Virus record (IMG/VR): IMGVR_UViG_649989946_000002
Length of the DNA: 40,386 bases
Strand: one strand, 5' to 3'
Source: a virus
Taxonomy: Duplodnaviria > Heunggongvirae > Uroviricota > Caudoviricetes
The notes under the pieces are model-generated. The model was not told the DNA's origin. It ran no database searches and saw only the letters and a list, made by a program, of their open reading frames with translations. This document shows positions 23,174 through 40,386 of this stretch, one piece after another; positions within the stretch are counted from its first letter, which is position 1, and every line of letters starts with the position of its first letter. A program made the translations under genes and the position numbers.

Positions 23174-23196
23174 CAAAAAAGCTCCCGAAGGAGCCT
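23174..23196 (-). terminator. Rho-independent terminator downstream of cspI
   Basis: Minus strand GGCTCC-TTCG-GGAGC followed by TTTTTTGC. Confidence 0.5.
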
Positions 23197-23614: not shown

Positions 23615-23977
23615 TATTATTACCTTTTGAAGAAGTTAGCCCTTGGGCAGAATGGTCCGAAAAAAAATATCAGAGAGAAAAACCAACAAGGAAATCTCAA
23701 GAGGTACAAATAATAAAATTATAACAATGACTGCTTCAGATAATTTTGTAACAAACCAGAACACCATTAACGCATGATTAACCAACCATAGCAAGGATTA
23801 CTTTTGTAAAGAAAAACACACGAATGAAACAATAGCTTTATTTATTAATAAAACGTGTCATTCTGTCTAATGACCTTTTATCTTACCCTTAAGATTTCAA
23901 GGATTTTGACTCATGGAAGAGTCCTTTTTATTTAAATTTCACATTCAGCGCTAAAAATAATCCGATTTAATATTAAT

Positions 23978-24470
<493 letters not shown>

Positions 24471-24474
<4 letters not shown>

Positions 24475-25004
24475 TGTTCTATCCCCCAGCAGGTTAATGC
24501 ACTCTCCTGGTCACGACGAATAACCTGACCGTAACAATTATTTGAACGAATGCGGCAATCACGTCCACCGTCCTTTATCCACCAGCGAATCGCCTCGCAT
24601 GCGCCTTTACGATCACCGGCATTAAGCCGCTTATAAAACGTCGACGGAAAACACTTACCAGGGCCAATGTTATAGGGACAGAATGACGCGATACCGGCTT
24701 TCTGTGGCTCGGTCAGTGGAACTTTTATATTGCGCTCCACCCATGCCAGCGCCTTATCCCGCTCAATGGCGTTAACCTGGGCGCATTTTTCCTTCGACAG
24801 CTTCATTTCCGGTATGACGGGCTTACCATCCACCATTGTGGCACCACGACAGATGGTCCATATACCGGAACCATCGCGGTATGCCGTAGTGTGGTTACCT
24901 TCTTTTTCATCCAAAAACTGGTCGAGAATATCAGGCGCAGGCGCACCGACGGCAATCAGTGCCAGAACAGCAGCCGACAGGCCGTATCTGATTTTAGTAT
25001 TCAT
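24471..25004 (-). CDS. SAR endolysin (lysozyme with signal-arrest-release N-terminus), RrrQ/R21-like
   Basis: 177-aa ORF MNTKIRYGLSAAVLALIAVGAPAPDILDQFLDEKEGNHTTAYRDGSGIWTICRGAT... (T4-lysozyme-like catalytic E-8aa-D-5aa-T region after a weakly hydrophobic SAR helix). Confidence 0.9.
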
Positions 25005-25059
25005 GGATATTTATCAGGATGCTACCAATGAAAGATACTGGAAAGCCAACTGCAAAAAG

Positions 25060-25374
25060 CTAACAACCCGTAATCGAGTTATCTGAACTGTTAATTTTTA
25101 TGGTATACCGAGCCTCTGAACAGGGTCGCGTTTCTGGCAACAGCTCGTCCCCTTCACATAACCCGGCAGCAACATCCAGGAAGACCTGTCTGATGCTCCT
25201 TCTGGCTGCTGCCTCATAAAACTCCAGCGCGGCACCTTCAACATGGTCCAGCGAGATGTCCAGGTCAAAAATTTCACCGTCAAAGCGTTCTTTGTCCTGT
25301 AAGGCTACAGTTACCGTAACTTTATTCTCAAAATTACGGACTCCTTTCACAACCAGTTCATAGTCTTGAGTCAT
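25060..25374 (-). CDS. YdfR-like protein (DUF1327), sited between holin and endolysin
   Basis: 104-aa ORF MTQDYELVVKGVRNFENKVTVTVALQDKERFDGEIFDLDISLDHVEGAALEFYEAAARR... Confidence 0.7.
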   Translation of the reverse strand: MTQDYELVVKGVRNFENKVTVTVALQDKERFDGEIFDLDISLDHVEGAALEFYEAAARRSIRQVFLDVAAGLCEGDELLPETRPCSEARYTIKINSSDNSITGC

Positions 25375-25378
25375 TGGA

Positions 25379-25594
25379 TTACTCTCCTCTCGCAGCCTTA
25401 CGCCTGTCTTCTTTAATCTTGAAATAAAGATTTGTCAGATACGTCAGCAGGCCAAAAACCAGGCTACCCAGCACACCGATTGCAGCCCACTGTGACGGAG
25501 TTACTTTATCGAGTAACTGCAATGCCCAGAAACCAGCATTACCCGCCGATGTGCCATAGGCAACACCTGTTGTTAACTTATCCATTGATTTCAT
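25379..25594 (-). CDS. Phage-21-type pinholin (S21/EssQ-like) with dual-start motif MKSM
   Basis: [71 protein letters not shown]; two TM segments, charged C-terminus; ORF track extends it to 25669. Confidence 0.85.
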
Positions 25595-25810
25595 ATCCTC
25601 ACCCCGATGTACACGGATGGTGCAATATGTTTGAAAAGATCGGAGTCTACGGGGTAGTTTTGACAGCACACGTTGTTCTCAACGGCGCTAAAAAAACATA
25701 CACATTAAAAATGTGGGTAATTATTTTGAAAGAAAGTCATATATAAAATAATAATACGAGAAATGTTTTCATATTTAGTGTACTGTATACGGCCATTTAT
25801 ACAGGAAAAG

Positions 25811-25984
25811 CCTATGTCAGAACGTAAAAACTCAAAATCACGCCGTAATTATCTCGTTAAATGTTCCTGCCCAAACTGCACCCAAGAGTCAGAACACAGT
25901 TTTTCAAGAGTACAAAAAGGTGCCCTTTTGATCTGCCCTCATTGCAACAAAGTATTCCAGACAAATCTTAAAGCTGTAGCCTGA
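25811..25984 (+). CDS. Small zinc-ribbon protein (CxxC...CxxC), possibly YnfU-like
   Basis: MSERKNSKSRRNYLVKCSCPNCTQESEHSFSRVQKGALLICPHCNKVFQTNLKAVA (56 aa); followed by a hairpin terminator. Confidence 0.55.
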   Translation, partial: PMSERKNSKSRRNYLVKCSCPNCTQESEHSFSRVQKGALLICPHCNKVFQTNLKAVA

Positions 25985-26041
25985 TTGATTTTATTAGTAA
26001 CAAGTATTTTTTATATTTTAATAATATATTTAAAGCAGATA

Positions 26042-26066
26042 ATAAAAAACCCGCCTGAGCGGGTTT
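26042..26066. terminator. Bidirectional hairpin terminator (zinc-ribbon gene on + and cspB on -)
   Basis: AAAAAACCCGC-CTGA-GCGGGTTT with A/T runs on both sides. Confidence 0.5.
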
Positions 26067-26347
26067 GAGATTGTGGTGCTTTTTGTGGGAGTCATCCACT
26101 TACGCACTTTGTTTTGCCATGCCAGCAGTTAGCTTCTGCTGTAAAACTATTCATGCAGCAAACCTGCACTTCACCACAATGGTTAGCATACTTTTCCTGA
26201 TTAAGATTTTGCCAAATATGCTAGCCATTGTTTCATGTATTGGACCTCCTTACTTTTTATTAAAGAGATCCAATATTCACTACTCTGTCCGTATCTCTAC
26301 TCAGGCATCAGCCTTCTTCGTTATCGTATACAGACGAGCGATGAATT

Positions 26348-26563
26348 TTAATCAGTAATGATGACATTTGCTGCTGCAGGACCTTTAGCACCACTCTCTA
26401 TAGAGAAGGTAACCTTTTGACCTTCAAATAAGGTTCGATAATTATCATTCTGAATCGCAGAAAAATGCACAAACACATCTTTACTACCATCAACAGGAGA
26501 AATAAAGCCGAAACCTTTATCAGCGTTAAACCATTTTACTAAACCAGTCATTTTATTTGACAT
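26348..26563 (-). CDS. cspB: Cold-shock protein, CspB-like
   Basis: 71-aa [70 protein letters not shown]... Confidence 0.9.
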
Positions 26564-26862
26564 TCTACATTCCTTAACTTGAGCCTTTCGGCATAAATGG
26601 TTTGCATAACAGAAACGACTTCGTACTTAATTGGAGAGACTCAAAGAAGGAATAAGTGAATAACACCTGAAATGAGAACTGCTTTAGTAAACTACTTCGT
26701 ATATCGTCTGTTCTTCAAACCGACGCAATCATTAACGCATAGTTGAACATATGAAGCAATGTTTATTTTAGACATCCAGCCGTCTTCAACCCCATCAAAA
26801 AACTATAGCTTTCTTCAGGAACGTGTGTATAGTGCGCCAAGTTATCAGTATTAAGGAATTTT

Positions 26863-27075
26863 TTGTCCCGTAAAATGACAGGAATTGTCAAAACCTTTGA
26901 CGGCAAAAGCGGCAAGGGTCTTATCACCCCATCCGATGGTCGTATCGATGTCCAGCTTCATGTTTCAGCGCTCAATCTCCGCGATGCAGAAGAAATTACC
27001 ACCGGATTACGCGTGGAATTTTGCCGGATAAATGGTCTGCGTGGCCCTTCAGCTGCCAATGTTTACCTTTCATGA
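26863..27075 (+). CDS. cspF: Cold-shock-domain protein, CspF-like (divergent)
   Basis: 70-aa [73 protein letters not shown]. Confidence 0.85.
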
Positions 27076-27374
27076 GCTATATTAAAGCTTTAATTTCAGG
27101 CCCCATCGGATCACACATGGAGAGTTTTTATGAATAACCCCGTCTGTCTTGATGACTGGTTGATTGGCTTTAAAAGCTTATGCTGTACTTTGGCCGTAAT
27201 AGCTCTGCTAATAATATAATAAGCAGACTCATTGTGTTTAGGGACATTGTACTGGAAGAAAACATTTTAAACATCAGGCAAATAACCAAGTCACCAGCTA
27301 AATAATAAGTTAACAGACATGAGTCCCGGGATGAGATTCAACATTACCATTGCCCCATTTAAAGCACAAAACCC

Positions 27375-27405
27375 GCTCATCAGCGGGTTTTCTACTTTTT
27401 CTTAA
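27375..27405 (-). terminator. Hairpin terminator downstream of Q (tR'-like position)
   Basis: AAAACCCGCT-CATC-AGCGGGTTTT with flanking A/T runs, about 200 nt downstream of the Q stop on the minus strand. Confidence 0.45.
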
Positions 27406-27605
27406 CGTCGGGTATACAAAGCCCATCGTTGAAAAATTTTATCCATATTTTTTGAAAAATGCAAACATCATGTCGCCATCTTCAGCAAAAATCATTTATC
27501 TCGTCACCTTCCTCAATTGCGCTTCCGCGTATGCTTCTTCCTGCCAGCACTTTGTTACCAGTTTACCAATGACGTCCGCATACCCCTTATACCACTGATA
27601 ATCGG

Positions 27606-28277
27606 TCAGGTCTGGTACCAGCTTCTGGACATGACGTCGTGCCAGCGTGGTCGGTAAACGACTAAACCGGTTTCCATTACAACGCCCACAAATCTTATAT
27701 ACCGGTACGCCATGAAACCGGGTTCTTTTTCATCCAGAACAATCCCTTTACCCTTACACCCTCTGCACGCTGTGCTGGCTTCGCCCTTACCATGGCAATG
27801 CTGACATAGTTCCTTCACCCATTCTTCCTTGATTACAGATTCCCCGCGTCTGTAGTGTTTCACCACTTCGCGCAATACATTATAAAATCCCGTACCTGAA
27901 CAATGCTCACAGCGAGCCTTACTTGCCGCAGACCTGGAGTAATCAGCAAAGGCAAAACTCACGAGGTAAGGAATAATCTGTAACCGGATTTCTTCACTCA
28001 ATTTGTTCAATGTCGGGTTATCCAGTGCCATCGCGTAATTTAGCAGGCCTTCAATCGCAAACTGAGGGTCCTGAACACCAACTTTTGCCAGAAATAAGGC
28101 CAACCCAAGTGGTGCTTTCGACTGCACCATCCCCTGCGCTGCCATTACATCCGTAATTGTTAAACAACCGGTGCCTGTCGCTGGAGCGTCATCGCTCAAT
28201 TTTGGAGATTTTGGGGAGTAATATTTTGGTAAGGCTTCAAGGTTCATGCTCGTTCTCCACTTACGCCAGTACGCCAA
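27606..28277 (-). CDS. Late-gene antiterminator Q (QuuQ/phage-82-type, zinc-binding)
   Basis: 223-aa ORF with CxxC...CxxC cluster (CEHCSGTG...CQHCHGKGEASTACRGCKGKG); position between nin-like genes and lysis cassette. Confidence 0.75.
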   Translation of the reverse strand: MAYWRKWRTSMNLEALPKYYSPKSPKLSDDAPATGTGCLTITDVMAAQGMVQSKAPLGLALFLAKVGVQDPQFAIEGLLNYAMALDNPTLNKLSEEIRLQIIPYLVSFAFADYSRSAASKARCEHCSGTGFYNVLREVVKHYRRGESVIKEEWVKELCQHCHGKGEASTACRGCKGKGIVLDEKEPGFMAYRYIRFVGVVMETGLVVYRPRWHDVMSRSWYQT

Positions 28278-29097
28278 TTGCCAGCGCGCGATCGATAAAA
28301 CGAAATATCAGCTCCAGTTGGGAGCCATACTTATCTTCAAATGCCACTGTATCCGTATGCAGCTCGTTGTGATGCTTTCTGCACAAAGGCAACACAAAGA
28401 GATCATGTGCTTTTGTTCCCATTCCGCCCTGCCCGTGACCAATCAGATGATGCGGATCGTCGGCTGGCATACCGCAGCAAGCACACGGCTGTGTCTTAAC
28501 CCAACGTGTGTATTTCTCCTTAACCCAGCGGCGACGTTTAGGCAGCTTCATGAAAGATTCCGGAGACTCTGGATCAACGGTGATGCTTACCACCGTCTTT
28601 TCCTGTGGTGATTTTTGTTGCTGGTGGGCGTAAGGCAACGGTGCAAGATTTTTTGTGCGTTGTTTCAATATGCTGGTGGCGGTCTGCTCTCCCGGTACGA
28701 TGTCGCTTTCGCGGTACACCGAGCAGATTTTTTCCGCTGGTAATCCCAGCGAACGACGCGATACAGCCTCAGGTAGTGCATCCACCACCTGATTGCAGAC
28801 CGCCCACCAGGATAATTCAGCCAAAGATAATTCCCGCTCCTGCGTACCGCTTATTGCGTGACGGATGACGTCAATCACCCATGCTGTCAGATTTTGTTGA
28901 GCAAGCAGCTCCAGTGATTCCGATGTCTGGTCACGCAGTTGGTTGTCGCAGTGCCAGCACAACACCATTGCGCCGGTACCATAACGGTGAATGACTGTTT
29001 CAGTGTGATGGTAATCGCCATTAGGCCACTGGCAGGATGTAACATGACGTAATAGCCAGTCGGACAATGCGCCAACGCCGCCAGCAGCACGAATCAC
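28261..29097 (-). CDS. YdfU-like DUF968 protein with C-terminal HNH-like motif
   Basis: 278-aa ORF; C-terminus CACCGMPADDPHHLIGHGQGGMGTKAHDLFVLPLCRKHHNELH; ATG overlaps the upstream ORF stop (ATGA). Confidence 0.65.
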   Translation of the reverse strand: MIRAAGGVGALSDWLLRHVTSCQWPNGDYHHTETVIHRYGTGAMVLCWHCDNQLRDQTSESLELLAQQNLTAWVIDVIRHAISGTQERELSLAELSWWAVCNQVVDALPEAVSRRSLGLPAEKICSVYRESDIVPGEQTATSILKQRTKNLAPLPYAHQQQKSPQEKTVVSITVDPESPESFMKLPKRRRWVKEKYTRWVKTQPCACCGMPADDPHHLIGHGQGGMGTKAHDLFVLPLCRKHHNELHTDTVAFEDKYGSQLELIFRFIDRALAIGVLA

Positions 29098-29348
29098 CCG
29101 TTCGTTACTAAAAACGGCAGCAATGTTTTGTCTTCCGCCAGCGGCTGGCGAACGGCAGGAACGACTCCGGATGGCAGATTACGCATGCTTTTTGGTTCCG
29201 GTTCCACCAGCACTCGAGGATTATGAAATATCTGTATGGATTCACGGCCCGGCTTAAGGACCACCAGCCCAAGCTCAGGCACCAGAACAGGTCTAAGTAA
29301 TACCCGCACGTTACCTCCAGATCCGTTGCTGGAAAGTGCGGGACGCAC
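29094..29348 (-). CDS. Hypothetical protein (84 aa), possibly the N-terminal part of the DUF968 gene
   Basis: ORF whose stop overlaps the DUF968 ATG; low-complexity sequence, weak support. Confidence 0.3.
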   Translation of the reverse strand: MRPALSSNGSGGNVRVLLRPVLVPELGLVVLKPGRESIQIFHNPRVLVEPEPKSMRNLPSGVVPAVRQPLAEDKTLLPFLVTNG

Positions 29349-29589
29349 GTGGTGGGCGTTCGGAATAAGGCAGCCTGACAGAGATTATCCAGTGCCGATA
29401 GTCGAGACTGAGAGCTTTCTTAACCTCGAACCCGCGCCTGCGGTAAGAATGAATCAGCCATTCGGCCTGTTCTGCAGTGCATGGAGGGTGCTGGAACCAT
29501 TCAGACTTGAATGCGTGAGAATACCGCCCGTGCGTGCAGGCAAGAACGGGCGAATTATCAGAATTGTAATATTTTGCGTTGCGTGCCAT
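29311..29589 (-). CDS. Hypothetical protein (92 aa)
   Basis: ORF MARNAKYYNSDNSPVLACTHGRYSHAFKSEWFQHPPCTAEQAEWLIHSYRRRGFEVKKAL...; nin-region position. Confidence 0.4.
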   Translation of the reverse strand: MARNAKYYNSDNSPVLACTHGRYSHAFKSEWFQHPPCTAEQAEWLIHSYRRRGFEVKKALSLDYRHWIISVRLPYSERPPRASRTFQQRIWR

Positions 29590-29655
29590 CGGTTTTCTCC
29601 GGTGGCACGGTGTTACTCAGCGGGAGTTCAGCCCCGCGCAAGATTGTAGATGAGT

Positions 29656-29907
29656 TTATTCTCCTGAAAAAGCAGAAAAGCCAGCTTTTATTCCGATCTC
29701 TTTCAATGCCTGTAATGAAGTGACAAACTCACCTTCGCGCAAGATAAATCCGTCCGTGACCCGAGCATCCACAAAATTAATTAACGCAGCCCCATTCTTT
29801 CGCAAACACATAATGCGGTAATGACTAACAAGATTTCCATTTTCAACGCACACAGCATAGAGGCCATCTTCACAAAAAATTTTACGCAGTTCTTCGATGT
29901 TCATCAT
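29656..29907 (-). CDS. Hypothetical 83-aa protein (position and length fit Qin Rem; identity not verified)
   Basis: ORF MMNIEELRKIFCEDGLYAVCVENGNLVSHYRIMCLRKNGAALINFVDARVTDGFILREGEF... Confidence 0.5.
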   Translation of the reverse strand: MMNIEELRKIFCEDGLYAVCVENGNLVSHYRIMCLRKNGAALINFVDARVTDGFILREGEFVTSLQALKEIGIKAGFSAFSGE

Positions 29908-30123
29908 CAGAATCCTTCCGGATAATTAGCTCTCCCCTTTAAGGGACCATCCCTCTTATCCCTGCGCGCTACTTAAGTATTTTTGATTCTATTCCGGCAC
30001 CGTCCAGAACTTCAAACGCGTTGAAAATAAAAACAAAAACCCGCCGAAGCGGGTTAAGTGCGGGTGCGTTGAGGATGCCTGCCACATCAGAGGTGGCGAG
30101 GGATTTCTCCCCCGCCGGGTCTC

Positions 30124-30279
30124 TTACTCCTCAGGTTCGTAAGCTGTGAAGACAGCGACCTCCGTCTGGCCGGTTCGGATTCGTACCTCGCAGAGGTCTT
30201 TCCTCGTTACCAGTGCCGTCACTATGACGGTTAAACAGATGACGATCAGGGCGATTAACATCGCCTTTTGCTGCTTCAT
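30124..30279 (-). CDS. hokD: Hok-family membrane toxin HokD (RelF), 51 aa; absent from the ORF track
   Basis: Hand translation of the minus strand: MKQQKAMLIALIVICLTVIVTALVTRKDLCEVRIRTGQTEVAVFTAYEPEE*. Confidence 0.9.
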   Translation of the reverse strand: MKQQKAMLIALIVICLTVIVTALVTRKDLCEVRIRTGQTEVAVFTAYEPEE

Positions 30280-30350
30280 AGCCTGCTTCTCCTGTCAACG
30301 CAAAGCAGAAGTGTCACCTTCGGTGCGAAACAGAGATGTCATGCTTTGGT

Positions 30351-30638
30351 TCAGAGAATGCGTTTGACCGCCTCGCTATATACTTCCGAGCGTTCTCTTT
30401 TCCCAACAGAAATCACGAAAACGACAACTTTCTCGTCTATAACCTGGTATACAAGGCGATAGCCTGAAGACCGGAGCTTAATCTTGTAACAATCAGGCAT
30501 ACCACGGAGCTTGTTTGCTTCAATCCGGGGTGACTCAAGTACTTCAACCAGCTTCTTTTTCAACTGTTCACGTACCGTCGAGCCCAGCTTTCGCCATTCC
30601 TTTAGTGCCCGCTCGTCAAAATCCAGAAAATACGCCAT
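30351..30638 (-). CDS. relE: mRNA interferase toxin RelE
   Basis: 95-aa ORF MAYFLDFDERALKEWRKLGSTVREQLKKKLVEVLESPRIEANKLRGMPDCYKIKLRSSGYRLVYQVIDEKVVVFVISVGKRERSEVY... Confidence 0.95.
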   Translation of the reverse strand: MAYFLDFDERALKEWRKLGSTVREQLKKKLVEVLESPRIEANKLRGMPDCYKIKLRSSGYRLVYQVIDEKVVVFVISVGKRERSEVYSEAVKRIL

Positions 30639-30877
30639 CAGAGTTCATCCAGCGTCACACGTACTGGCTTAGGATTACGAAGCCGTTCTTTCACTATCTC
30701 CACAAGTTCAGCATCTTCATCACTCAGGAGTGTCTGTTTGAACGGCAAGCGTTCATTGTCAGCGATATACTCGAGCATGAGACGAAGCGCTTCAGAAGGA
30801 GTTACACCCATTTTTTCAAGCGCGGCGTAAGAACGCGCTTTAAGTTCATCGTCAATACGCAGGTTAATGCTACCCAT
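30638..30877 (-). CDS. relB: Antitoxin RelB
   Basis: 79-aa ORF MGSINLRIDDELKARSYAALEKMGVTPSEALRLMLEYIADNERLPFKQTLLSDEDAELVEIVKERL...; stop overlaps relE start. Confidence 0.95.
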   Translation of the reverse strand: MGSINLRIDDELKARSYAALEKMGVTPSEALRLMLEYIADNERLPFKQTLLSDEDAELVEIVKERLRNPKPVRVTLDEL

Positions 30878-30887
30878 GTCTTACACC

Positions 30888-30916
30888 TATTGTAATTACA
30901 AATGTCATTACAAGTA
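30888..30916 (-). promoter_or_regulatory. relBE operator (relO) / promoter region
   Basis: Adjacent imperfect palindromes TTGTAATTACAA and TTGTCATTACAAG immediately upstream of relB. Confidence 0.6.
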
Positions 30917-31359
30917 TCGCACTACAACATGCTTAGGGCAAGTCACGAAGGAAGTCAGAAAGTAGTCGTAAGAACGGTGATCACTGTCCGCTTTGTGCCA
31001 GGAGCAGCCATTGCTAAGTCCATCCTGTATTGTGCAGGTCAGCTCGTTTTTAAAGAGTCCGGCCATCATCTTACTGGTACAGACACCATATACTTTGTGA
31101 CGGTCAGGCTACATATGCACAACTCAACTTATTCATCTATTTTTTGCTTTAGCATGTCAGTGTTGCTTTCTCGTCGGCGGGTGAGCGGTGACCTGACCTG
31201 TCGATAAAGGAACGTAGCACGTTTTATGCAACACCCGCATGCGGCAGAAAATTATTGCCGAACGTTTACCCCTGTCAACAAGCTTTACTTTCTGAGGCGC
31301 GCCAGCCCGCGAGGAAAACAATCTGAACATCAAACAATTAATGACACAAGAAATACGAT

Positions 31360-31385
31360 TAAAGATTTTTTGTGCATGCCGATAG
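31360..31385 (+). promoter_or_regulatory. Sigma-28 (FliA)-type promoter upstream of flxA
   Basis: TAAAGATT-N10-GCCGATAG resembles the TAAAGTTT-N11-GCCGATAA consensus, about 25 nt upstream of the flxA ATG. Confidence 0.6.
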
Positions 31386-31408
31386 TGCTTTTTTAAAAGG
31401 AGAAATCT

Positions 31409-31726
31409 ATGTCTGTCACAATTCAGGGAAATACCTCAACCGTTATTTCAAACAACTCCGCCCCGGAAGGAACATCAGAAATAGCCAAAATCACAAGACA
31501 AATTCAGGTGCTGACTGAAAAGCTTGGGAAAATCTCATCGGAAGAGGGGATGACGACACAGCAGAAAAAAGAAATGGCTGCATTGGTACAGAAGCAAATT
31601 GAAAGCCTCAGGGCTCAACTGGAGCAGTTGTTAAGGCAGCAGGCAGAGAAAAAGAATAAAGACGCGACAGTTCAGCCTGATAAAAAGAAGAGAAAAAGAC
31701 GATACAAATACCGCTGGCACCATTGA
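31409..31726 (+). CDS. flxA: FlxA-like protein
   Basis: 105-aa ORF MSVTIQGNTSTVISNNSAPEGTSEIAKITRQIQVLTEKLGKISSEEGMTTQQKKEMAALVQKQIESL... with basic C-terminal tail. Confidence 0.8.
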   Translation: MSVTIQGNTSTVISNNSAPEGTSEIAKITRQIQVLTEKLGKISSEEGMTTQQKKEMAALVQKQIESLRAQLEQLLRQQAEKKNKDATVQPDKKKRKRRYKYRWHH

Positions 31727-31753
31727 TATTTACGTCTAAGTGACAGCCGTATT

Positions 31754-31776
31754 GTGGCCCTCATCGGGCCACTTTT
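31754..31776 (+). terminator. Rho-independent terminator after flxA
   Basis: GTGGCCC-TCATC-GGGCCAC followed by TTTT. Confidence 0.6.
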
Positions 31777-31939
31777 CGCCATCAGCCTTTTCTTTAAAGA
31801 CATATTATCTTTGTATCATTTCTGATAGTTAACATTACAAGATATAAGTAATGGACGCACTCCCAATTAGTCTATTTAAATCGCCACGAGTTTAACTGAC
31901 AACCCATGATCAATTATGAATTGCAACTATTTCTGTAGT

Positions 31940-33600
31940 CACTTTTGTGGGGACAGTCCACAAAACTGCCAACTTCCGCTTCTTGCTCTTAGCGGACATT
32001 AGCATAGGCTATTTACCATAACGCCTCATTACGCGCACCGCCCAGACTGACTCAGCGCGTTTCTGGCATATCCCCGGTAAAACAAGTAACAAACCACCCG
32101 AAAATGAACACCAGAAACGCGACTTAAGAATCTACCCTATGAATGGATATGCACTCAACCGAATCGATCTTGGTTTCAATCTATTTTATCGGGATCAGGC
32201 TTCTTTTTAGGTAACTTCGGGGGCTTAACTTGCTGATGACTTTGCGTTCGGCGCGTAAGCCAGGGATGGTCAGCTTTAGATTTAACATAGTATTTTGAGC
32301 GTAAATCAATACGGGCATTATCCACTCGTTCATGGACACTCTTTTCATCATCCAGTGGTATAGGCTCCGGGCCATCAACATACTTTTCCCAGCCCAGCGC
32401 TTTCCCGTCATACAGAACGTTAATTTCACCGTCAAAGTTCTCACATACAGTAACAACCGAATGCCTAAGTCGATATCCCCGGCCCTCACTGCGTACCTGA
32501 AACGCACTGCTTTTGTACTGGAAAGTGAGATTTTTAGACAGAACGCGCTTCGCCTGTAGGCTGAAGATATAACCCAGTTCCTCTTCAGAATGGTGCACAT
32601 CAAGATGAGCATTATCAGTAGTACGAGGCGACGTAGCGAACCGGTTGTTATAGGCTTCAATAAAGGTCGGCAACCATGCATTTGCTGTTTCAATATCACT
32701 GATATTCTGAAGCCGCATTTCTTTGACCAGCCTGTCCTGTAGTGTCTGATTGGCGCGCTCTACCCGCCCTTTTGCCTGCGGGCTGTTGGCATGGATTGGC
32801 TCGATGCCCTGTGTCTTTATCGCACGAGTGAACTGGGTCAGCTCACCTTCCCGCTCTGGGTTATTTACCCTGAATATACTGTGTCTATCAGAGTAGAGAG
32901 CGAGCGGTACGCCATGATCATTAAGGTAACCCCGGAGGGTTTCCATGTAAGCCCGGGTTGTTTCAGCAGGCACAAAACGCAACGCCATCAACGCACTGGT
33001 GGCATCATCAATGAAAACGATCAGTGTACATCTGGGGCCTCGATTTTCAAACCAGTCATGAGGTGAGCCATCAATCTGGATCAGTTCACCGTAAGATGGT
33101 CGTCGCATGCGGCGTTGATATATACGGGCAATTTTACGACGGCGTTCACGCCATAACCCCTCTTCTATCATCCACTTTCTGAGAGTTTCAACGGATAAAG
33201 ATAAACCGTGTATCTCGCGCAATTTTTCGCACGCAAACGTAGGTCCAAAATCAGCGTAACGGCCTTTGAGGAGTGAAATTACTGTTGCTCTGAATTCAGT
33301 AGAAAAGGAATTATTAGGATGCTTTCCACGTCGGTGGGAAACCAGACCAGAAGGCCCTTCATTTCTATACCGTTGCACCAGACGTTTAACCTGCCGAATA
33401 GAAATGCCAATGCGTGCCGCAGCTTGTTCCTGAGTAATATGTCGATTAATTGACTCCTGAATAATCTGAAGTCGGTGGAGTTCCTTATGACTCATCGTAA
33501 CAGTCTCTTTGATCATGAAAAATCCCCCAGAGAATTGTCTGGGGACATTTTAGAATGGTTCAAAGGGGACATTACAGCTTGGTGTTAACAATAGCCTGCT
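31940..33600 (-). mobile_element. Second IS element (rve/DDE transposase, IS481- or ISNCY-like); ends not resolved
   Basis: Single large transposase ORF flanked by non-coding DNA; GGGGACA-containing motifs near both flanks; no terminal inverted repeats could be confirmed by eye. Confidence 0.35.
32176..33516 (-). CDS. DDE-type (integrase-core, rve) transposase with N-terminal HTH
   Basis: 446-aa ORF: HTH (ITQEQAAARIGISIRQVKRLVQRY), DDE core (LIQIDGSPHDW..., LIVFIDDATS..., ALYSDRHSIF..., RVERANQTLQDRLVKEMR). Confidence 0.85.
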   Translation of the reverse strand: MIKETVTMSHKELHRLQIIQESINRHITQEQAAARIGISIRQVKRLVQRYRNEGPSGLVSHRRGKHPNNSFSTEFRATVISLLKGRYADFGPTFACEKLREIHGLSLSVETLRKWMIEEGLWRERRRKIARIYQRRMRRPSYGELIQIDGSPHDWFENRGPRCTLIVFIDDATSALMALRFVPAETTRAYMETLRGYLNDHGVPLALYSDRHSIFRVNNPEREGELTQFTRAIKTQGIEPIHANSPQAKGRVERANQTLQDRLVKEMRLQNISDIETANAWLPTFIEAYNNRFATSPRTTDNAHLDVHHSEEELGYIFSLQAKRVLSKNLTFQYKSSAFQVRSEGRGYRLRHSVVTVCENFDGEINVLYDGKALGWEKYVDGPEPIPLDDEKSVHERVDNARIDLRSKYYVKSKADHPWLTRRTQSHQQVKPPKLPKKKPDPDKID

Positions 33601-33969
33601 TCTCCTTGCCTTCCGGCACTCGCGACAGATTATGTTTAGACGACTGTCGTAGCGACGTATTTCTCCGTCAGGTAATGACCAGATAAGGTCCGGATCAACC
33701 ACAGCAGGTTTCTTCACCTTTGCCCTCGAGAGTTTTTTGCGGGCGTTTTGCCAGTCCTTACGCGCCTGTTCAGACGGGAATAACCCGTAACCAGAGCTGT
33801 ATACATCGCCACTGGCAACCAGCTCTCTGGCCAGAACGCTCATCAGATATCTTGTTGCCCCAGTTTTAGCTTCCAGTTGTCGTAACGTCTCGCGCCCACT
33901 CTGGCGTACGAGTTCCACCACCTGCCCTTTAATTTTTTCCCGCTCTTCTTGTGTAAAAACTTTTGCCAC
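33550..33969 (-). CDS. Hypothetical replication-module protein (position of a helicase-loader gene); C-terminus may be altered by the adjacent IS
   Basis: 139-aa ORF MAKVFTQEEREKIKGQVVELVRQSGRETLRQLEAKTGATRYLMSVLARELVASGDVY...; last codons lie in the IS-proximal sequence. Confidence 0.4.
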   Translation of the reverse strand: MAKVFTQEEREKIKGQVVELVRQSGRETLRQLEAKTGATRYLMSVLARELVASGDVYSSGYGLFPSEQARKDWQNARKKLSRAKVKKPAVVDPDLIWSLPDGEIRRYDSRLNIICRECRKARRSRLLLTPSCNVPFEPF

Positions 33970-34009
33970 AAGTCCTCCTGAACATTACTTTATACCCTAA
34001 AATCAACAC

Positions 34010-35029
34010 TTATCCCCTGAAACCAGGCGGAATTTCTGTATCCGGTTCAGAAATATGATTCACACAACGCTGTACAGGTGAACGTCCCAGGCGGATGACC
34101 AGTTCGTCCCATTTTTCGCGGAGTTTTGACGGGCTCATGATGTTTTTTACCCAGAATTGATCTCGCTGTACCCGACCAAACATTTCGCAAATTTGTCTGT
34201 GGCTTCTGCCATCCAGCATCCGCATTGTGCGCACGTCATTGGCCCAGGCTGTCCAGTTAGGCTCTTTTGGTCGCATGATCTCTCCATCGTCGCTGGCAGC
34301 CTGTTCGTAAAGGTTCACGATCCGCCCCCAAATCCACTGCGCACACGCCAAATCCTCCCTGCTACCCCACTGGCGTTTTTTCGCACTAAACACAACCGCG
34401 TCGGGGTTCCGGGTTAAAAAATCCTGTTCAGCGGTCTGCGGGTCCGGTTGCGAAGCTTCCGGACGAAAAGTGTTTTTATTCTCTGTAGTAATCTCTGTTG
34501 TATTCTCTGTAAGATCATCAGGCCATTTTGACCCGATGACATTGGGTCGTTTTGAACCAATGGAGCGTTTCATTTTGACCTCTTCCATCGTGTCATTTTG
34601 ACCTGATGGAGCGGCGCATTTTAAACCGATGGATTCGCTCAATTTGCCACCATCTAAAAGCTCGCTCCCGTAGTTGATCGTGTAGAAATTGGTCATATCG
34701 CGCTTTGATTTATTGAGCTTTTCACAACGCAAAAGCCCCAGCGTTTTCAGACTTGCAAACGCGCGCTTTAACGTTGACTCTGACCAGAATGGGAACTGTT
34801 CCAGCCATTGTTCCGTTGTGTTGTAAATCCAGCGAACACCATCACATTCCATGCCGGAATTGGTATCTCTCAACCAGTAATGCAACTGCTGCAACACAAT
34901 GGCTTCATTTAAGCCAATCTTCATCGCAAGCTGTGTGTTTATAACCAGTGGGCGTTCAGCAAAAAGAAGGCTCATAATTCCATCCAGCTTTTTGTTGGTA
35001 TTGCTGTCGATACGCAAGCTTGAAAGCAA
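34010..35029 (-). CDS. Replication initiator, lambda O-like (replisome organiser) with internal origin iterons
   Basis: 339-aa ORF in the O position downstream of the cro-like dicC; six 23-bp iterons lie within its coding sequence; true start may be the internal Met at 34975. Confidence 0.7.
   Translation of the reverse strand: MLSSLRIDSNTNKKLDGIMSLLFAERPLVINTQLAMKIGLNEAIVLQQLHYWLRDTNSGMECDGVRWIYNTTEQWLEQFPFWSESTLKRAFASLKTLGLLRCEKLNKSKRDMTNFYTINYGSELLDGGKLSESIGLKCAAPSGQNDTMEEVKMKRSIGSKRPNVIGSKWPDDLTENTTEITTENKNTFRPEASQPDPQTAEQDFLTRNPDAVVFSAKKRQWGSREDLACAQWIWGRIVNLYEQAASDDGEIMRPKEPNWTAWANDVRTMRMLDGRSHRQICEMFGRVQRDQFWVKNIMSPSKLREKWDELVIRLGRSPVQRCVNHISEPDTEIPPGFRG
34524..34662. repeat. Origin-of-replication iterons: 6 direct repeats, 23-bp period, consensus CATTTTGACC-N-GATGGAG
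   Basis: Repeat units start at 34524, 34548, 34571, 34594, 34617 and 34640 (CATTTTGACC / CGTTTTGAAC / CATTTTAAAC / CAATTTGCCA); adjacent A/T-rich stretch with 3x TCTCTGT at 34470-34520. Confidence 0.75.
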
Positions 35030-35477
35030 TTGCTTTTTCTATAAGTTCGTCAGTTTCACGATCCACTACGGCAGGATCAGCAAAAAGCAGTCCGGACTCC
35101 ACCACATCGCCATATTCTTTGTTTAACCCGGCGATCATGCACGTGATGCTTTTTCCGTCAGTAATTTCACGATACAACCTGAAATCACTAATCCGGATAG
35201 CCTCCATAATCGCAGGCACTAGCGCCGTGAACTTTTCACGCTTATCCCTGGTATCGATAGCCTTCCAGCGTTCGAATATCTTCACTCGATTAACACCAAG
35301 CGCTCGCTGATCAACCGCGCCACCTTCATCTGTGACACGCTGAACATCGATGTTCGGGCGCTCTTTCAAAGCCCAGAATGCTTCAGTGATTAATATCGTC
35401 GCCTGCTCCTGTGTCATTCCTGGTCGACATATCCAGGCATCCAGAGCCTCACGAGCCTGTTCAGGAGTGATTTTCAT
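34956..35477 (-). CDS. Hypothetical early-region protein in the cII/YdaT position
   Basis: 173-aa ORF MKITPEQAREALDAWICRPGMTQEQATILITEAFWALKER... between dicC and the O-like gene. Confidence 0.5.
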   Translation of the reverse strand: MKITPEQAREALDAWICRPGMTQEQATILITEAFWALKERPNIDVQRVTDEGGAVDQRALGVNRVKIFERWKAIDTRDKREKFTALVPAIMEAIRISDFRLYREITDGKSITCMIAGLNKEYGDVVESGLLFADPAVVDRETDELIEKAIAFKLAYRQQYQQKAGWNYEPSFC

Positions 35478-35688
35478 TGTTCAACCGCCCCGCCCGCTTC
35501 GTCTTACGATATTCATCATAAACTTTGGGATCATACTGAAGCTCCCCGCCAGATGCCTCCTGTAGACGCATCGCGCGACCTTCAGGAACCAGTATCCCCC
35601 AAGCAGCAACACTTGCCAGCCTCACTCCTGCGGCATTGGCAAGCTTTGTTTTGCTGCCAAAAAAAGTAATTGCGTCAACTTTAAGCAT
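35461..35688 (-). CDS. dicC: Cro-like regulator DicC
   Basis: MLKVDAITFFGSKTKLANAAGVRLASVAAWGILVPEGRAMRLQEASGGELQYDPKVYDEYRKTKRAGRLNNENHS (75 aa), divergent from dicA. Confidence 0.85.
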   Translation of the reverse strand: MLKVDAITFFGSKTKLANAAGVRLASVAAWGILVPEGRAMRLQEASGGELQYDPKVYDEYRKTKRAGRLNNENHS

Positions 35689-35701
35689 CAAAGCCCCCCT
35701 C

Positions 35702-35720
35702 TTGTTAGATTTTTCTAACA
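35702..35720. promoter_or_regulatory. DicA/DicC operator palindrome in the dicC-dicA intergenic region
   Basis: TTGTTAGA-TTT-TCTAACA inverted repeat. Confidence 0.6.
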
Positions 35721-35769
35721 TTATTGTGCGCGGGATACCTAAGTCAAGAAAAATTAGAATTACCTAACT

Positions 35770-36177
35770 ATGGATACAAGAACCCTGGGCCAGCGAGTTC
35801 TGGCGCGACGAAAAGAATTACGCTTAACACAACGAGAAGCCGCGCGCCTCGCTGGAGTTGCTCACGTCACAATTTCACAATGGGAAAGAGACGAAACCCA
35901 GCCAGTCGGAAAACGATTGTTTGCTTTAGCGGATGCTCTGAAGTGCTCACCTACATGGCTAATGTTTGGTGACGAAGACAAGGCACCAGTGCCTGCACAA
36001 GAACTTCATGTGGAAACAGAGCTAACTCCCAACCACAAAGAATTGATCGAATTATTCGATGCTCTTCCATCTTCCGAGCAGGAAGCCTTGCTGTCTGAAA
36101 TGCGCGCAAGAGTAGAAAACTTCAACAAACTCTTCGAAGAAATGCTTAAAGCGCGTAAAAATAAATCAATAAAATAA
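35770..36177 (+). CDS. dicA: Repressor DicA (HTH_XRE, cI-like immunity repressor)
   Basis: 135-aa ORF MDTRTLGQRVLARRKELRLTQREAARLAGVAHVTISQWERDETQPVGKRLFALADAL... Confidence 0.95.
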   Translation: MDTRTLGQRVLARRKELRLTQREAARLAGVAHVTISQWERDETQPVGKRLFALADALKCSPTWLMFGDEDKAPVPAQELHVETELTPNHKELIELFDALPSSEQEALLSEMRARVENFNKLFEEMLKARKNKSIK

Positions 36178-36212
36178 CATTCTTTTCAAGTGATTAGTTG
36201 CGCCCACCCTTT

Positions 36213-36232
36213 TTGTTAGATCAATCTAACAA
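36213..36232. promoter_or_regulatory. Second DicA operator palindrome upstream of the ydfA-dicB operon
   Basis: TTGTTAGA-TCAA-TCTAACAA perfect inverted repeat. Confidence 0.6.
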
Positions 36233-36345
36233 AAAACACTTGCCTCTCATGTTAGGTTATTCTAAATTATTTTCCATCAAGACACCGCACGGTGTTCTCA
36301 GCAAACAGTTCCGCTACCCCGGCGTTAAGGGGAAATGAGGTCAGC

Positions 36346-36501
36346 ATGGATACTATCGATCTTGGCAACAACGAATCTCTGGTATGTGGCGTGTTTCCAA
36401 ACCAGGACGGCACGTTCACCGAAATGACGTATACCAAAAGCAAAACGTTTAAAACCGAATCTGGAGCGCGTCGCTGGCTGGAAAGAAATTCAGGTGGGTG
36501 A
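36346..36501 (+). CDS. ydfA: YdfA-like small protein (51 aa)
   Basis: MDTIDLGNNESLVCGVFPNQDGTFTEMTYTKSKTFKTESGARRWLERNSGG with GAGG RBS. Confidence 0.7.
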   Translation: MDTIDLGNNESLVCGVFPNQDGTFTEMTYTKSKTFKTESGARRWLERNSGG

Positions 36502-36502
36502 T

Positions 36503-36631
36503 ATGGATTTCGACACAATCATGGAAAAGGCTTACGAAGAATACTTCGAAGGCCTTGCCGAAGGCGAAGAAGCTCTCAGCTTCAGCGAATTTAAACAGGC
36601 GCTTTCCAGTTCGGCAAAATCTAACGGCTGA
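36503..36631 (+). CDS. ydfB: YdfB-like small protein (42 aa); absent from the ORF track
   Basis: Hand translation: MDFDTIMEKAYEEYFEGLAEGEEALSFSEFKQALSSSAKSNG*; start immediately after the ydfA stop. Confidence 0.65.
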   Translation: MDFDTIMEKAYEEYFEGLAEGEEALSFSEFKQALSSSAKSNG

Positions 36632-36660
36632 TAAGCGAAACAGCACCGCGAGGAATCAGT

Positions 36661-36879
36661 ATGCAGAAACGAGAACCCGTCATCATCGCGCCAGACTATA
36701 CCGATGATGAACTTTATGAGTGGATGCGCCAGAAAATTAATGCAGCGCAGGATCTGAAATGGGCTAATGAAGCCAGGGCTAAGCAGGCTGAAAATCTGTC
36801 CGCTCTGGAGCAGGATATCACCAATCTGGAAAAAGCAGCGGCATTAAGCATTGCCAGAATGATTACATACCCGCGTTAG
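36661..36879 (+). CDS. ydfC: YdfC-like protein (72 aa)
   Basis: MQKREPVIIAPDYTDDELYEWMRQKINAAQDLKWANEARAKQAENLSALEQDITNLEKAAALSIARMITYPR. Confidence 0.8.
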   Translation: MQKREPVIIAPDYTDDELYEWMRQKINAAQDLKWANEARAKQAENLSALEQDITNLEKAAALSIARMITYPR

Positions 36880-37219
36880 TAGCTAATCAACAAAGCTAAG
36901 GTTAGTAATTAAGGAGTTCTCCACGGGTGAGGTGGAGTGCGTGCGCCGGACACGGGTGCGCATCCGGAACTGACAGTTTACTGAAAGGATATTTCCCTGA
37001 AAAGTCAGACCATAACGCGAAAGCGCACGGCGAGGTAGCTGGTTCATAGATAGCCTGTCGTTAAATTTTCGTCGACCGTGCGCTTCCGGTTGTGGCAACC
37101 CGCGAAATGGCGCGGCGGTAAGTATGGCGGGGTTATTCCTTCCCCGTTGAGGACACCGGGTTGTCAGGTTGACCATACGCTTAAGTGACAACCCCGCTGC
37201 AACGCCCTCTGTTATCAAT

Positions 37220-37277
37220 TTTCTGGTGACGTTTGGCGGTATCAGTTTTACTCCGTGACTGCTCTGCCGCCCTTTTT
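37220..37277 (+). ncRNA. dicF: DicF small regulatory RNA (ftsZ/division-inhibiting sRNA) including its terminator hairpin
   Basis: TTTCTGGTGACGTTTGGCGGTATCAGTTTTACTCCGTGACTGCTCTGCCGCCCTTTTT matches the DicF sequence as recalled; between ydfC and dicB. Confidence 0.85.
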
Positions 37278-37446
37278 AAAGTGAATTTTGTGATGTGGTG
37301 AATGCGGCTGAGCGCACGCGGAACAGTTAAAACCAAAAACAGTGTTATGGGTGGATTCTCTGTATCCGGCGTTAATTGTTAACTGGTTAACGTCACCTGG
37401 AGGCACCAGGCACTGCATCACAAAATTCATTGTTGAGGACGCGATA

Positions 37447-37635
37447 ATGAAAACGTTATTACCAAACGTTAATACGTCTGAAGGTTGTTTTGAAATTGGT
37501 GTCACTATCAGTAACCCAGTATTTACTGAAGATGCCATTAACAAGAGAAAACAAGAACGGGAGCTATTAAATAAAATATGCATTGTTTCAATGCTGGCTC
37601 GTTTACGTCTGATGCCAAAAGGATGTGCACAATGA
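37447..37635 (+). CDS. dicB: Cell-division inhibitor DicB
   Basis: MKTLLPNVNTSEGCFEIGVTISNPVFTEDAINKRKQERELLNKICIVSMLARLRLMPKGCAQ (62 aa). Confidence 0.9.
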   Translation: MKTLLPNVNTSEGCFEIGVTISNPVFTEDAINKRKQERELLNKICIVSMLARLRLMPKGCAQ

Positions 37636-37823
37636 ATTCAGCATTTGTGCTTGTTCTGACAGTTTTTCTTGTTTCCGGAGAGCCAGTTGATATTGCAGTC
37701 AGTGTTCACAGGACAATGCAGGAGTGTATGACTGCAGCAACCGAACAGAAAATTCCCGGTAACTGTTACCCGGTCGATAAAGTTATTCACCAGGATAATA
37801 TCGAAATCCCGGCAGGTCTTTAA
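37632..37823 (+). CDS. ydfD: YdfD-like small membrane protein
   Basis: MNSAFVLVLTVFLVSGEPVDIAVSVHRTMQECMTAATEQKIPGNCYPVDKVIHQDNIEIPAGL; ATGA overlap with the dicB stop. Confidence 0.8.
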   Translation: MNSAFVLVLTVFLVSGEPVDIAVSVHRTMQECMTAATEQKIPGNCYPVDKVIHQDNIEIPAGL

Positions 37824-37915
37824 AACAGTTCCGTAATAAATATCCGGTTTCATTCTTATATGCCAGCAATGGCAGGGATTTGTTCATCCTTAAATCTGTC
37901 ATGAGGTTAAAACAA

Positions 37916-38890
37916 ATGAGTAAAGTCTTTATTTGCGCCGCTATTCCTGACGAACTGGCAACAAGGGAAGAAGGCGCTGTGGCTGTAGCCACAGCCATTG
38001 AAGCTGGCGACGAACGCCGTGCTCGAGCAAAATTTCACTGGCAATTCCTGGAACATTATCCGGCTGCTCAGGACTGCGCTTATAAATTTATTGTCTGCGA
38101 GGATAAACCTGGCATACCCCGCCCTGCCCTCGATTCATGGGATGCTGAATATATGCAGGAAAACCGCTGGGATGAGGAGTCTGCTTCTTTTGTCCCGGTT
38201 GAGACTGAATCCGATCCGATGAACGTCACTTTTGACAAGCTGGCCCCTGAAGTACAGAACGCTGTCATGGTTAAGTTCGACACATGTGAAAACATCACCG
38301 TTGATATGGTTATTAGCGCACAGGAATTGTTGCAGGAAGACATGGCAACATTCGACGGACATATCGTTGAAGCGTTGATGAAAATGCCAGAAGTTAACGC
38401 CATGTATCCGGAGCTTAAGTTGCACGCCATTGGGTGGGTTAAGCATAAATGTATTCCTGGTGCTAAATGGCCCGAAATTCAGGCAGAGATGCGCATCTGG
38501 AAAAAACGTCGCGAAGGTGAACGCAAGGAAACCGGAAAATACACGTCTGTTGTTGATCTCGCCCGCGCCAGAGCCAATCAACAGTACACTGAAAATTCAA
38601 CAGGAAAAATCAGCCCGGTCATTGCTGCCATTCATCGCGAATACAAGCAGACATGGAAAACACTGGATGACGAACTGGCCTACGCTCTCTGGCCTAGTGA
38701 TGTGGATGCCGGAAACATTGACGGCAGCATCCATCGCTGGGCAAAAAAGAAGTTATCGACAACGACCGCGAAGACTGGAAGCGTATCTCGGCATCAATGC
38801 GCAAACAGCCTGATGCCCTTCGCTACGACCGCCAAACTATTTTTGGCCTTGTCCGTGAGCGTCCGATCGACATTCACAAAGATCCCGTAG
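37916..38890 (+). CDS. YdfE-like protein, N-terminal part of a large leftward-operon protein (frame break at 38743-38748)
   Basis: MSKVFICAAIPDELATREEGAVAVATAIEAGDERRARAKF...; GAGG RBS; sequence after ...SIHRWAKK looks out of frame. Confidence 0.6.
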   Translation: MSKVFICAAIPDELATREEGAVAVATAIEAGDERRARAKFHWQFLEHYPAAQDCAYKFIVCEDKPGIPRPALDSWDAEYMQENRWDEESASFVPVETESDPMNVTFDKLAPEVQNAVMVKFDTCENITVDMVISAQELLQEDMATFDGHIVEALMKMPEVNAMYPELKLHAIGWVKHKCIPGAKWPEIQAEMRIWKKRREGERKETGKYTSVVDLARARANQQYTENSTGKISPVIAAIHREYKQTWKTLDDELAYALWPSDVDAGNIDGSIHRWAKKKLSTTTAKTGSVSRHQCANSLMPFATTAKLFLALSVSVRSTFTKIP

Positions 38891-40386
38891 CACTGAACAA
38901 ATATATCTGCGAATACCTGACGACAAAGGGCGTGTTTGAGAATGAAGAAACAGACCTGGGCACTGTTGATGTTCTCCAGTCATCAGAAACACAAACTGAT
39001 GCAGTGGAAACTGAGGTATCTGATATCCCAAAAAATGAAACCGCGCCGGAAGCTGAACCATCTGTAGAGCGTGAGGGGCCGTTCTATTTCCTCTTCGCAG
39101 ATAAGGACGGAGAAAAATACGGTCGCGCAAACAAACTCTCTGGTCTGGATAAGGCACTGGCTGCTGGCGCCACTGAAATCACAAAAGAAGAATATTTTGC
39201 CCGAAAAAATGGCACATACACGGGCTTACCGCAAAATGTAGATACCGCTGAAGATTCAGAACAACCAGAGCCGATAAAAGTTACCGCTGACGAAGTAAAC
39301 AAAATTATGCAGGCAGCCAATATCAGCCAGCCTGACGCCGATAAGTTGCTTGCTGCATCACGTGGTGAATTTGTTGAAGGGATTAGTGACCCGAATGATC
39401 CGAAATGGGTTAAGGGGCTCCAGACCCGCGATTCTGTGAACCAGAACCAGCATGAATCGGAACGGAACTACCAAAAAGCGGAACAAAACAGTCCAAATGC
39501 GTTACAAAACGAGCCAGAAACGAAACAGCCTGAACCAGTAGCGCAACAGGAAGTGGAAAAAGTCTGCACCGCCTGCGGTCAGACCGGCGGCGGCAACTGC
39601 CCTGATTGTGGCGCGGTGATGGGCGACGCAACATACCAAGAAACATTCGATGAAGAGTATCAGGTTGAAGTTCAGGAAGATGATCCGGAGGAAATGGAAG
39701 GCGCTGAACATCCACACAAGGAGAACACTGGCGGCAATCAGCATCACAATAGCGATAATGAAACTGGCGAGACGGCAGATCACCCAATTAAGGTGAACGG
39801 TCATCACGAAATCACATCCACCAGCAGGACGTGTGACCATCTAATGATCGACCTTGAAACCATGGGAAAAAATCCTGATGCCCCGATCATCTCAATAGGT
39901 GCAATATTTTTCGATCCGCAAACCGGAGATATGGGACCGGAATTTAGTAAGACTATCGATCTGGAAACTGCTGGCGGAGTCATTGATCGGGACACCATTA
40001 AATGGTGGCTTAAGCAATCACGCGAAGCGCAATCTGCCATTATGACCGATGAAATCCCGTTAGATGATGCACTGTTACAATTGCGAGAATTTATCGACGA
40101 AAACTCCGGTGAATTTTTTGTTCAGGTTTGGGGAAATGGAGCCAACTTCGACAACACGATTTTGCGCCGTTCATACGAACGGCAGGGGATCCCCTGCCCG
40201 TGGCGTTACTACAACGATCGCGATGTACGCACAATCGTTGAGCTGGGGAAAGCCATAGACTTCGATGCCAGAACGGCTATTCCATTCGAAGGTGAGCGCC
40301 ATAATGCACTTGATGACGCCCGTTACCAGGCAAAATACGTTTCAGTTATCTGGCAAAAACTGATCCCGAGTCAGGCTGATTCTTAA
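38797..40386 (+). CDS. C-terminal part of the same protein, carrying a DnaQ-like DEDDh 3'-5' exonuclease domain
   Basis: Motifs LMIDLETMG (Exo I), VWGNGANFD (Exo II), HNALDDARYQAKY (Exo III); frame open upstream of the Met back through the A-run at 38743-38748. Confidence 0.7.
   Translation: MRKQPDALRYDRQTIFGLVRERPIDIHKDPVALNKYICEYLTTKGVFENEETDLGTVDVLQSSETQTDAVETEVSDIPKNETAPEAEPSVEREGPFYFLFADKDGEKYGRANKLSGLDKALAAGATEITKEEYFARKNGTYTGLPQNVDTAEDSEQPEPIKVTADEVNKIMQAANISQPDADKLLAASRGEFVEGISDPNDPKWVKGLQTRDSVNQNQHESERNYQKAEQNSPNALQNEPETKQPEPVAQQEVEKVCTACGQTGGGNCPDCGAVMGDATYQETFDEEYQVEVQEDDPEEMEGAEHPHKENTGGNQHHNSDNETGETADHPIKVNGHHEITSTSRTCDHLMIDLETMGKNPDAPIISIGAIFFDPQTGDMGPEFSKTIDLETAGGVIDRDTIKWWLKQSREAQSAIMTDEIPLDDALLQLREFIDENSGEFFVQVWGNGANFDNTILRRSYERQGIPCPWRYYNDRDVRTIVELGKAIDFDARTAIPFEGERHNALDDARYQAKYVSVIWQKLIPSQADS

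Follow-up and report, generated by a model that had tools for sequence, protein, structure and literature searches.

The exonuclease locus and its two overlapping reading frames

The window (the whole stretch of DNA analysed here, 40,386 nt) carries the leftward dicBF operon of a Qin-type lambdoid prophage, and an exonuclease gene is located at the end of this operon. We made the operon assignment because the DicF small RNA lies upstream at 37221-37272 on the + strand (Rfam RF00039, 76.7 bits) and because of the gene order of annotated relatives, in which the exonuclease gene stands after dicA-ydfA-ydfB-ydfC-dicF-dicB-ydfD and before xis-int. K-12 has the same gene order around DicF.

In the deposited window, the 823-residue exonuclease is not encoded by a single uninterrupted ORF, as it is split into products of 324 and 529 aa at a run of six adenines (A6; 38743-38748, + strand), which is A7 in otherwise identical records. 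According to the ORF listing, the + strand contains ORF1 at 37916-38890, starting with ATG, and ORF2 at 38797-40386. The two lie in different frames and share 94 nt, in agreement with the original prediction. The longest mechanical version of ORF1 begins at a TTG at 37880, and the stop codon of ORF2 is the exact end of the window. Codons 1-278 of ORF1 (324 aa) correspond to the native N-terminus of the exonuclease, the YdfE_N/YdfE_C region, while its last 46 codons, from 38750 onward, are out-of-frame read-through. The rest of the exonuclease gene (residues 279-823 and the stop codon) occupies 38749-40386 on the + strand, shifted by -1 from the frame of ORF1. As listed mechanically, ORF2 (529 aa) begins at the codon of an internal methionine (Met295) at 38797, but its frame stays open upstream to 38722, that is, across the A6, as had been claimed from the sequence. 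Independent expression of ORF2 from Met295 was considered and rejected, since no evident Shine-Dalgarno sequence precedes 38797 (GTATCTCGGCATCAATG).

Repair of the reading frame and distribution of the intact gene

When one A was added to the A6, a single ORF of 823 aa was obtained, which is identical to WP_000048342.1 at 823 of 823 residues and reads ...SIHRWAKK/EVIDNDREDWKRISASMRKQPDAL... (WAKK/EVIDND) at the junction. This is the fusion of about 820 aa that had been predicted from a single indel in the A-run, with the predicted junction. We ran megablast with 37880-40386 as the query, and the same DNA turned up, with match spans of 2508 nt, in thousands of E. coli chromosomes as well as in phage PhiR42_1. 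Between the window (2507 nt) and the copies in PhiR42_1 and E. coli cq9 (2508 nt) there are no substitutions, and A6 versus A7 is the sole difference. The two copies are annotated as a single CDS of 823 aa, namely XSB42569.1 (“exodeoxyribonuclease VIII”, PhiR42_1) and WP_000048342.1 (“exonuclease”, cq9). In homologues with 87-92% identity, and in NADC1036, the site of the A-run reads AAAAAAT.

The intact form is also by far the more widespread. The exact intact protein of 823 aa was found on at least 1000 contigs versus 37 contigs for the exact frameshifted product of 324 aa, and ADUK01000015.1 is among these 37. The gene was found in about 4800 of 5426 finished E. coli genomes, and about 3500 finished genomes contain it at a coverage of at least 80%. 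Besides, PHROG 2082 covers residues 1-822 of the 823 residues of the repaired ORF with a score of 1827 bits. The original prediction had proposed a search for full-length homologues of the fused translation, and such homologues with a single ORF are abundant. The two ORFs are thus one gene, an ordinary and widespread exonuclease of 823 residues of Qin-type lambdoid prophages, and the gene itself is already known and common.

Shortened homopolymers across the window

The window was compared with near-identical finished genomes, and 13 single-base deletions were found in homopolymers with true lengths of 6-8 nt, each site being compared with one to three independent references (two or three for most of them). 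Ten of the 13 are located in genes (L, Z, ynfN twice, Rz/rzpQ, ydfT/Q, ydfU, flxA twice and the exonuclease), and the other three are intergenic. Among homopolymers of at least 5 nt in the window, there is no case of lengthening.

Among the genic sites, A5 at 6597-6601 breaks the tail gene L and C5 at 11944-11948 breaks the tail gene Z, where three references have A6 and C6 respectively. Two shortened runs, A7 for A8 and T6 for T7, are located 13 nt apart inside ynfN (23110-23128). Compared with the references, rzpQ (Rz) is broken by T7 in place of T8 at 24389-24395, ydfT (antiterminator Q) by T5 in place of T6 at 27726-27730, and ydfU by A5 in place of A6 at 29110-29114, while flxA contains two A5 runs in place of A6, which are 11 nt apart (31682-31697). 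The intergenic sites are T6 at 26859-26864 (T7 in the references), A5 at 27432-27436 (A6 in the references) and T6 at 31366-31371, which is T7 both in the references and in a Logan re-assembly of the same strain. A further candidate, the C-run site at 33157, was rejected as an error, because the variant is common to finished genomes and represents a real polymorphism.

The original prediction had counted five single-base frame breaks (L, Z, Rz, stf and the exonuclease), which falls short of the 13 homopolymer deletions (10 genic) and two insertions in stf that we found. Of its five sites, L, Z, Rz and the exonuclease are homopolymer breaks as described, but stf is broken by insertion outside a run. 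At the 5' end of stf (1-419, - strand), the window has one additional base at two places compared with two references: the run at 5-8 is G4 where they have G3, and at 383 there is an inserted C outside any run. The frame changes after MAVKISGVLKDGT. This break is probably a sequencing or assembly error too.

The dependence on run length can be seen in the comparison with NZ_CP128594.1. Over 7.5 kb of the window (22122-29646) there are no substitutions and seven gaps, and each gap is one base missing from a run of the window (A8 to A7, T7 to T6, T8 to T7, T7 to T6, A6 to A5, T6 to T5 and A6 to A5). Of the roughly 21,750 runs of up to 5 nt compared with this reference, not one has lost a base, whereas shortening affects 5 of 26 six-nt runs, 2 of 7 seven-nt runs and 2 of 4 eight-nt runs.

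Source of the window and its closest finished relative

Over its last 12.5 kb (27916-40386), the window is 100.000% identical, with no gaps, to contig ADUK01000015.1 of the E. coli 1827-70 assembly (GCA_000165655.2), so this draft assembly is the source of the window. Beyond the end of the window, the contig contains xis, int, rspB and rspA. A 7-kb query from this contig, from the exonuclease to ynfA, matched dozens of finished genomes, nearly all of them over a span of 7005 nt, which exceeds the query by 5 bases, and these genomes annotate the exonuclease, the integrase and rspA as intact.

The best finished relative is NCTC9008. Over 12.3 kb from ydfC to ynfE, the draft differs from it by 3 substitutions and 5 one-nt deletions in runs, which are located in the exonuclease (A7 to A6), xis (A7 to A6), int (A5 to A4), rspA (C4 to C3) and an intergenic segment (A6 to A5). 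NCTC9008 itself has A7 and intact genes. We also compared the draft with the Logan re-assembly of SRR040453, which represents the same strain, as there are no substitutions over 21 kb. Five homopolymer lengths differ between the two assemblies, in both directions, and because of this disagreement the homopolymer lengths from the underlying reads are unreliable. At the exonuclease site, however, the two assemblies (GenBank draft and Logan) agree on A6. A literature search on strain 1827-70 and accession ADUK returned nothing relevant on the sequencing platform; we assume that the 2010 draft was pyrosequenced.

Origin of the A6

The split is very probably a one-base under-call of a homopolymer, that is, an assembly artefact and not a real biological feature. 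A true A7 would have been read as A6 in the draft of E. coli 1827-70, which would make the exonuclease gene look broken. The same systematic and length-dependent under-calling would also have shortened at least 12 further runs in the window (true lengths 6-8 nt), together with runs in the adjacent host chromosome. Such an error would have to be systematic in the reads, because both assemblies give A6. We infer that sequencing chemistry or consensus calling is the cause rather than mutation, probably through pyrosequencing. As a rough weighting, about 30% of true 7-mers are mis-called in the assembly versus a natural A6 frequency of about 0.2-0.3%, which gives odds of roughly 100 to 1 for error over a real A6. 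The original prediction had left the choice between systematic homopolymer sequencing error and a prophage accumulating inactivating indels, and the pattern of deletions only, confined to long runs, strongly favours the former.

The alternative is that the change from A7 to A6 is a real replication-slippage mutation in 1827-70 and that the exonuclease is a frameshifted pseudogene in a decaying prophage. Real A6 alleles do occur elsewhere. With a 91-nt probe, the exact A6 allele was found in 7 of the 3579 finished E. coli records examined. In three finished genomes with A6 (BR1220, NCTC9104 and KFu024) the neighbouring genes are intact and the gene is labelled “frameshifted” by PGAP. BR1220 and NCTC9104 share a common 5'-truncated remnant with A6, and the BR1220 copy matches the window exactly from nt 489 on, A6 included. 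In KFu024 the A6 is on a background 14 substitutions away, in the context GGGCAAAAAAGAAG. The gene has also been disrupted in other ways, such as by IS2 in K-12, by IS3 in VG888-46E9 and by a different frameshift in PPompW, and the two assemblies of 1827-70 concur on A6. In view of the real A6 alleles, a genuine pseudogene in 1827-70 keeps a small probability, but it is unlikely. The nearest finished relative, NCTC9008, has A7 and is only 3 substitutions away in 12.3 kb, while BR1220 is farther (17 in 9.8 kb), so inheritance of the A6 from the BR1220/NCTC9104 lineage was rejected.

Moreover, the 40 kb contain 13 homopolymer changes, this one included, all of which are deletions, and substitutions are almost absent. 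Intergenic runs are included and the pattern extends into the host gene rspA, so decay specific to the prophage was rejected as well. A real process that made about one change every 2.5-3 kb would disrupt more than a thousand genes across the genome. A mismatch-repair mutator produces many more transitions than indels, and a mutator or a phase-variable tract was rejected because the indel to substitution ratio is 12:3 or worse, with deletions only. In diverged homologues, AAAAAAT takes the place of the A7.

The least credible reading is that ribosomes express the A6 allele by a -1 frameshift at A_AAA_AAG, which would make the split a functional one, or at any rate a leaky one. A_AAA_AAG works as an efficient slip heptamer in E. 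coli, as in dnaX and the transposases of the IS3 family. The frame of ORF1 reads GCA AAA AAG, which places the heptamer (38743-38749) in the correct phase with ORF2 in the -1 frame, and a -1 slip at this site would give ...WAKK/EVIDND..., which is exactly the intact protein. This phase, however, is an automatic consequence of the loss of one base from an in-frame A7G. The two-frame layout is not conserved, given the rarity of A6 among the 3579 finished records and the in-frame A7 or AAAAAAT of homologues. The 81 nt downstream fold at -20.1 kcal/mol (z -1.08) and are no more stable than shuffled sequences, 31 of 200 of which fold equally well. Compared with a site of the dnaX/IS3 type, the heptamer and its phase are identical, but here the site is unconserved and has no stimulatory structure. 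The A6 in the window is, besides, most likely unreal. A frameshift selected for at the A6 is thus extremely improbable. There is an equally slight chance that the A6 is real here and that -1 slips would yield the wild-type exonuclease of 823 aa at a reduced level, which would make it a down-tuned allele and not a dead one.

Consequences for annotation

With an under-called A7 as the preferred explanation of the split, the frame breaks in the window, which concern the exonuclease, L, Z, ynfN, Rz, Q, ydfU and flxA, should not be taken as evidence of pseudogenisation, of programmed frameshifting or of a new gene architecture. The split products of 324 and 529 aa have separate database entries, one of which is labelled “YafQ toxin protein”. 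A PHROG family of 529/530 residues matches exactly residues 295-822, which is ORF2, and the existence of this family indicates that fragmentary gene calls are already present in reference collections. What may deserve interest is the gene, whose DexA-like domain could be viewed in the light of the 2025 report on HREX, and not the split.

Domains of the intact protein

The original prediction had described a YdfE-like N-terminus and a DEDDh exonuclease C-terminus, and Pfam matches to YdfE_N, YdfE_C and PF16473 bear this out. YdfE_N and YdfE_C are recorded on the exact product of 324 aa, which represents the N-terminus of the protein. The C-terminal match is an Rv2179c-like DEDDh 3'-5' exonuclease domain at residues 642-813 (39838-40353, + strand; PF16473, 226.5 bits, E-value 2.4e-67), which is far above the gathering cutoff of 27 bits and spans profile positions 2-177 of 177. 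The DEDDh motifs were located by pattern as DLET (D646, E648), NFDN (D746) and HNALDD (H796, D801). Among solved structures, T4 DexA (8KEL) is the nearest, with a phmmer E-value of 1.5e-6 over residues 643-776, and in PADLOC there was only a weak and generic DEDDh match. Sequence inspection also revealed a CxxC...CxxC motif at residues 551-566 (CTACGQTGGGNCPDCG; 39565-39612, + strand), which is possibly a zinc ribbon.

Judged from these domain matches, the C-terminal Rv2179c/DexA-like domain most likely makes the intact protein a 3'-5' DEDDh exonuclease, and the YdfE region and the region similar to the middle of RecE would serve as non-catalytic modules. The latter similarity comes from the RecE profile NF007259 (NCBIfam), in which residues 246-623 align with positions 271-600 at 281.6 bits, while the cutoff is 1269. 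Profile positions beyond 600 (to about 877), which we take to be the RecE nuclease domain, have no match in the repaired protein, where the DEDDh domain is located instead. Because the score is far under the cutoff and the C-terminal part is absent, the label “exodeoxyribonuclease VIII”, although common in records, does not mean membership of the RecE family as judged by this profile.

Comparison with known systems

Compared with WP_000048342.1 and PhiR42_1, the gene in the window encodes the same protein after repair and occupies the same locus, and the deposited sequence is one A short of A7. In K-12 the corresponding gene is truncated. The K-12 ydfE (b1577, an annotated pseudogene) consists of the first 767 nt of the exonuclease gene, which is why the N-terminus appears YdfE-like. 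An IS2E insertion interrupts it 61 nt upstream of the A-run, and the remainder is lost, whereas the window retains the whole gene. Up to the IS2E junction, the window (36059-38682) is 96.6% identical to K-12.

The gene resembles recE, which encodes exodeoxyribonuclease VIII of the Rac prophage, in its equivalent early-left position adjoining xis/int, and no RecT-like partner was found by product name among the genes annotated around it in the related records examined. As for the catalytic domain, the protein shares with T4 DexA and the E. coli protein EcD (“HREX”) the Rv2179c-like DEDDh family with the D-x-E, D and H-x4-D motifs. The similarity to T4 DexA (8KEL) is remote, and unlike DexA, the DEDDh domain here is fused to about 640 N-terminal residues. 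EcD (HAK9828821.1), the E. coli homologue of DexA, was reported in 2025 to degrade 5hmC DNA and to provide protection against T4 (PMC12153337).

Variation of the exonuclease A-run, and gene fragments in databases

For the A-run at which the prophage exonuclease gene is split (A6 in the window, A7 in relatives), it turned out that the A6 allele was carried by 7 of 3,579 records, and among the finished genomes it occurred in at least two sequence backgrounds. The true A6 alleles came from the finished E. coli genomes BR1220 and NCTC9104 (locus 5697-7687 in both) and KFu024 (5217-7687). Because these alleles are found in finished genomes with at least two backgrounds, natural slippage also takes place at the A7 run, at low frequency.

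The artefactual 529-aa product of ORF2, the 3' piece of the split gene (window 38797-40386; protein P0017), has database entries of its own, one of which is labeled “YafQ toxin protein”, and is covered from end to end by the PHROG family phrog_20376 (530 positions). These matches indicate that fragments of the exonuclease now circulate as though they were separate proteins.

Other differences from reference genomes

The frame break in stf, a gene on the minus strand, lies outside any homopolymer. Two references lack one C that is present in the window on the plus strand at position 383, where the gene orientation reads ACGAGG instead of their ACAGG; they also have G3 where the window has G4, at positions 5-8. 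The break at 383 is outside the under-calling pattern of single-base deletions in homopolymer runs, and may be an error of another kind or a true variant.

Besides, the IS3 copy at 20864-22125 has the opposite orientation to that in the two nearest finished relatives, and its insertion point is shifted by 93 nt relative to NZ_CP128594.1 and by 176 nt relative to NZ_CP091022.1, with otherwise identical flanks. Such a pattern suggests either that IS3 inserted independently into a small hotspot lying between the lysis and terminase regions, or that the locus was rearranged.

RNA elements and likeness of the exonuclease to DexA

DicF sRNA was located at 37221-37272 on the plus strand (RF00039, 76.7 bits), and dicB-ydfD and the exonuclease gene all lie downstream of it, an arrangement that bears out the dicBF operon context. 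The minus strand carries two cspA-type thermoregulator 5' leaders (RF01766), at 23356-23761 (110.6 bits) and 26332-26724 (158.8 bits); they are the leaders of cspI and cspB, which are cold-shock genes of the prophage.

The gene encoding the DexA-like domain is a very common prophage gene. The C-terminal domain of the exonuclease (residues 642-813, window 39838-40353) is a remote homologue of T4 DexA. EcD, an E. coli DexA homologue, is reported to break down 5hmC DNA and so protect against T4 (2025; PMC12153337).
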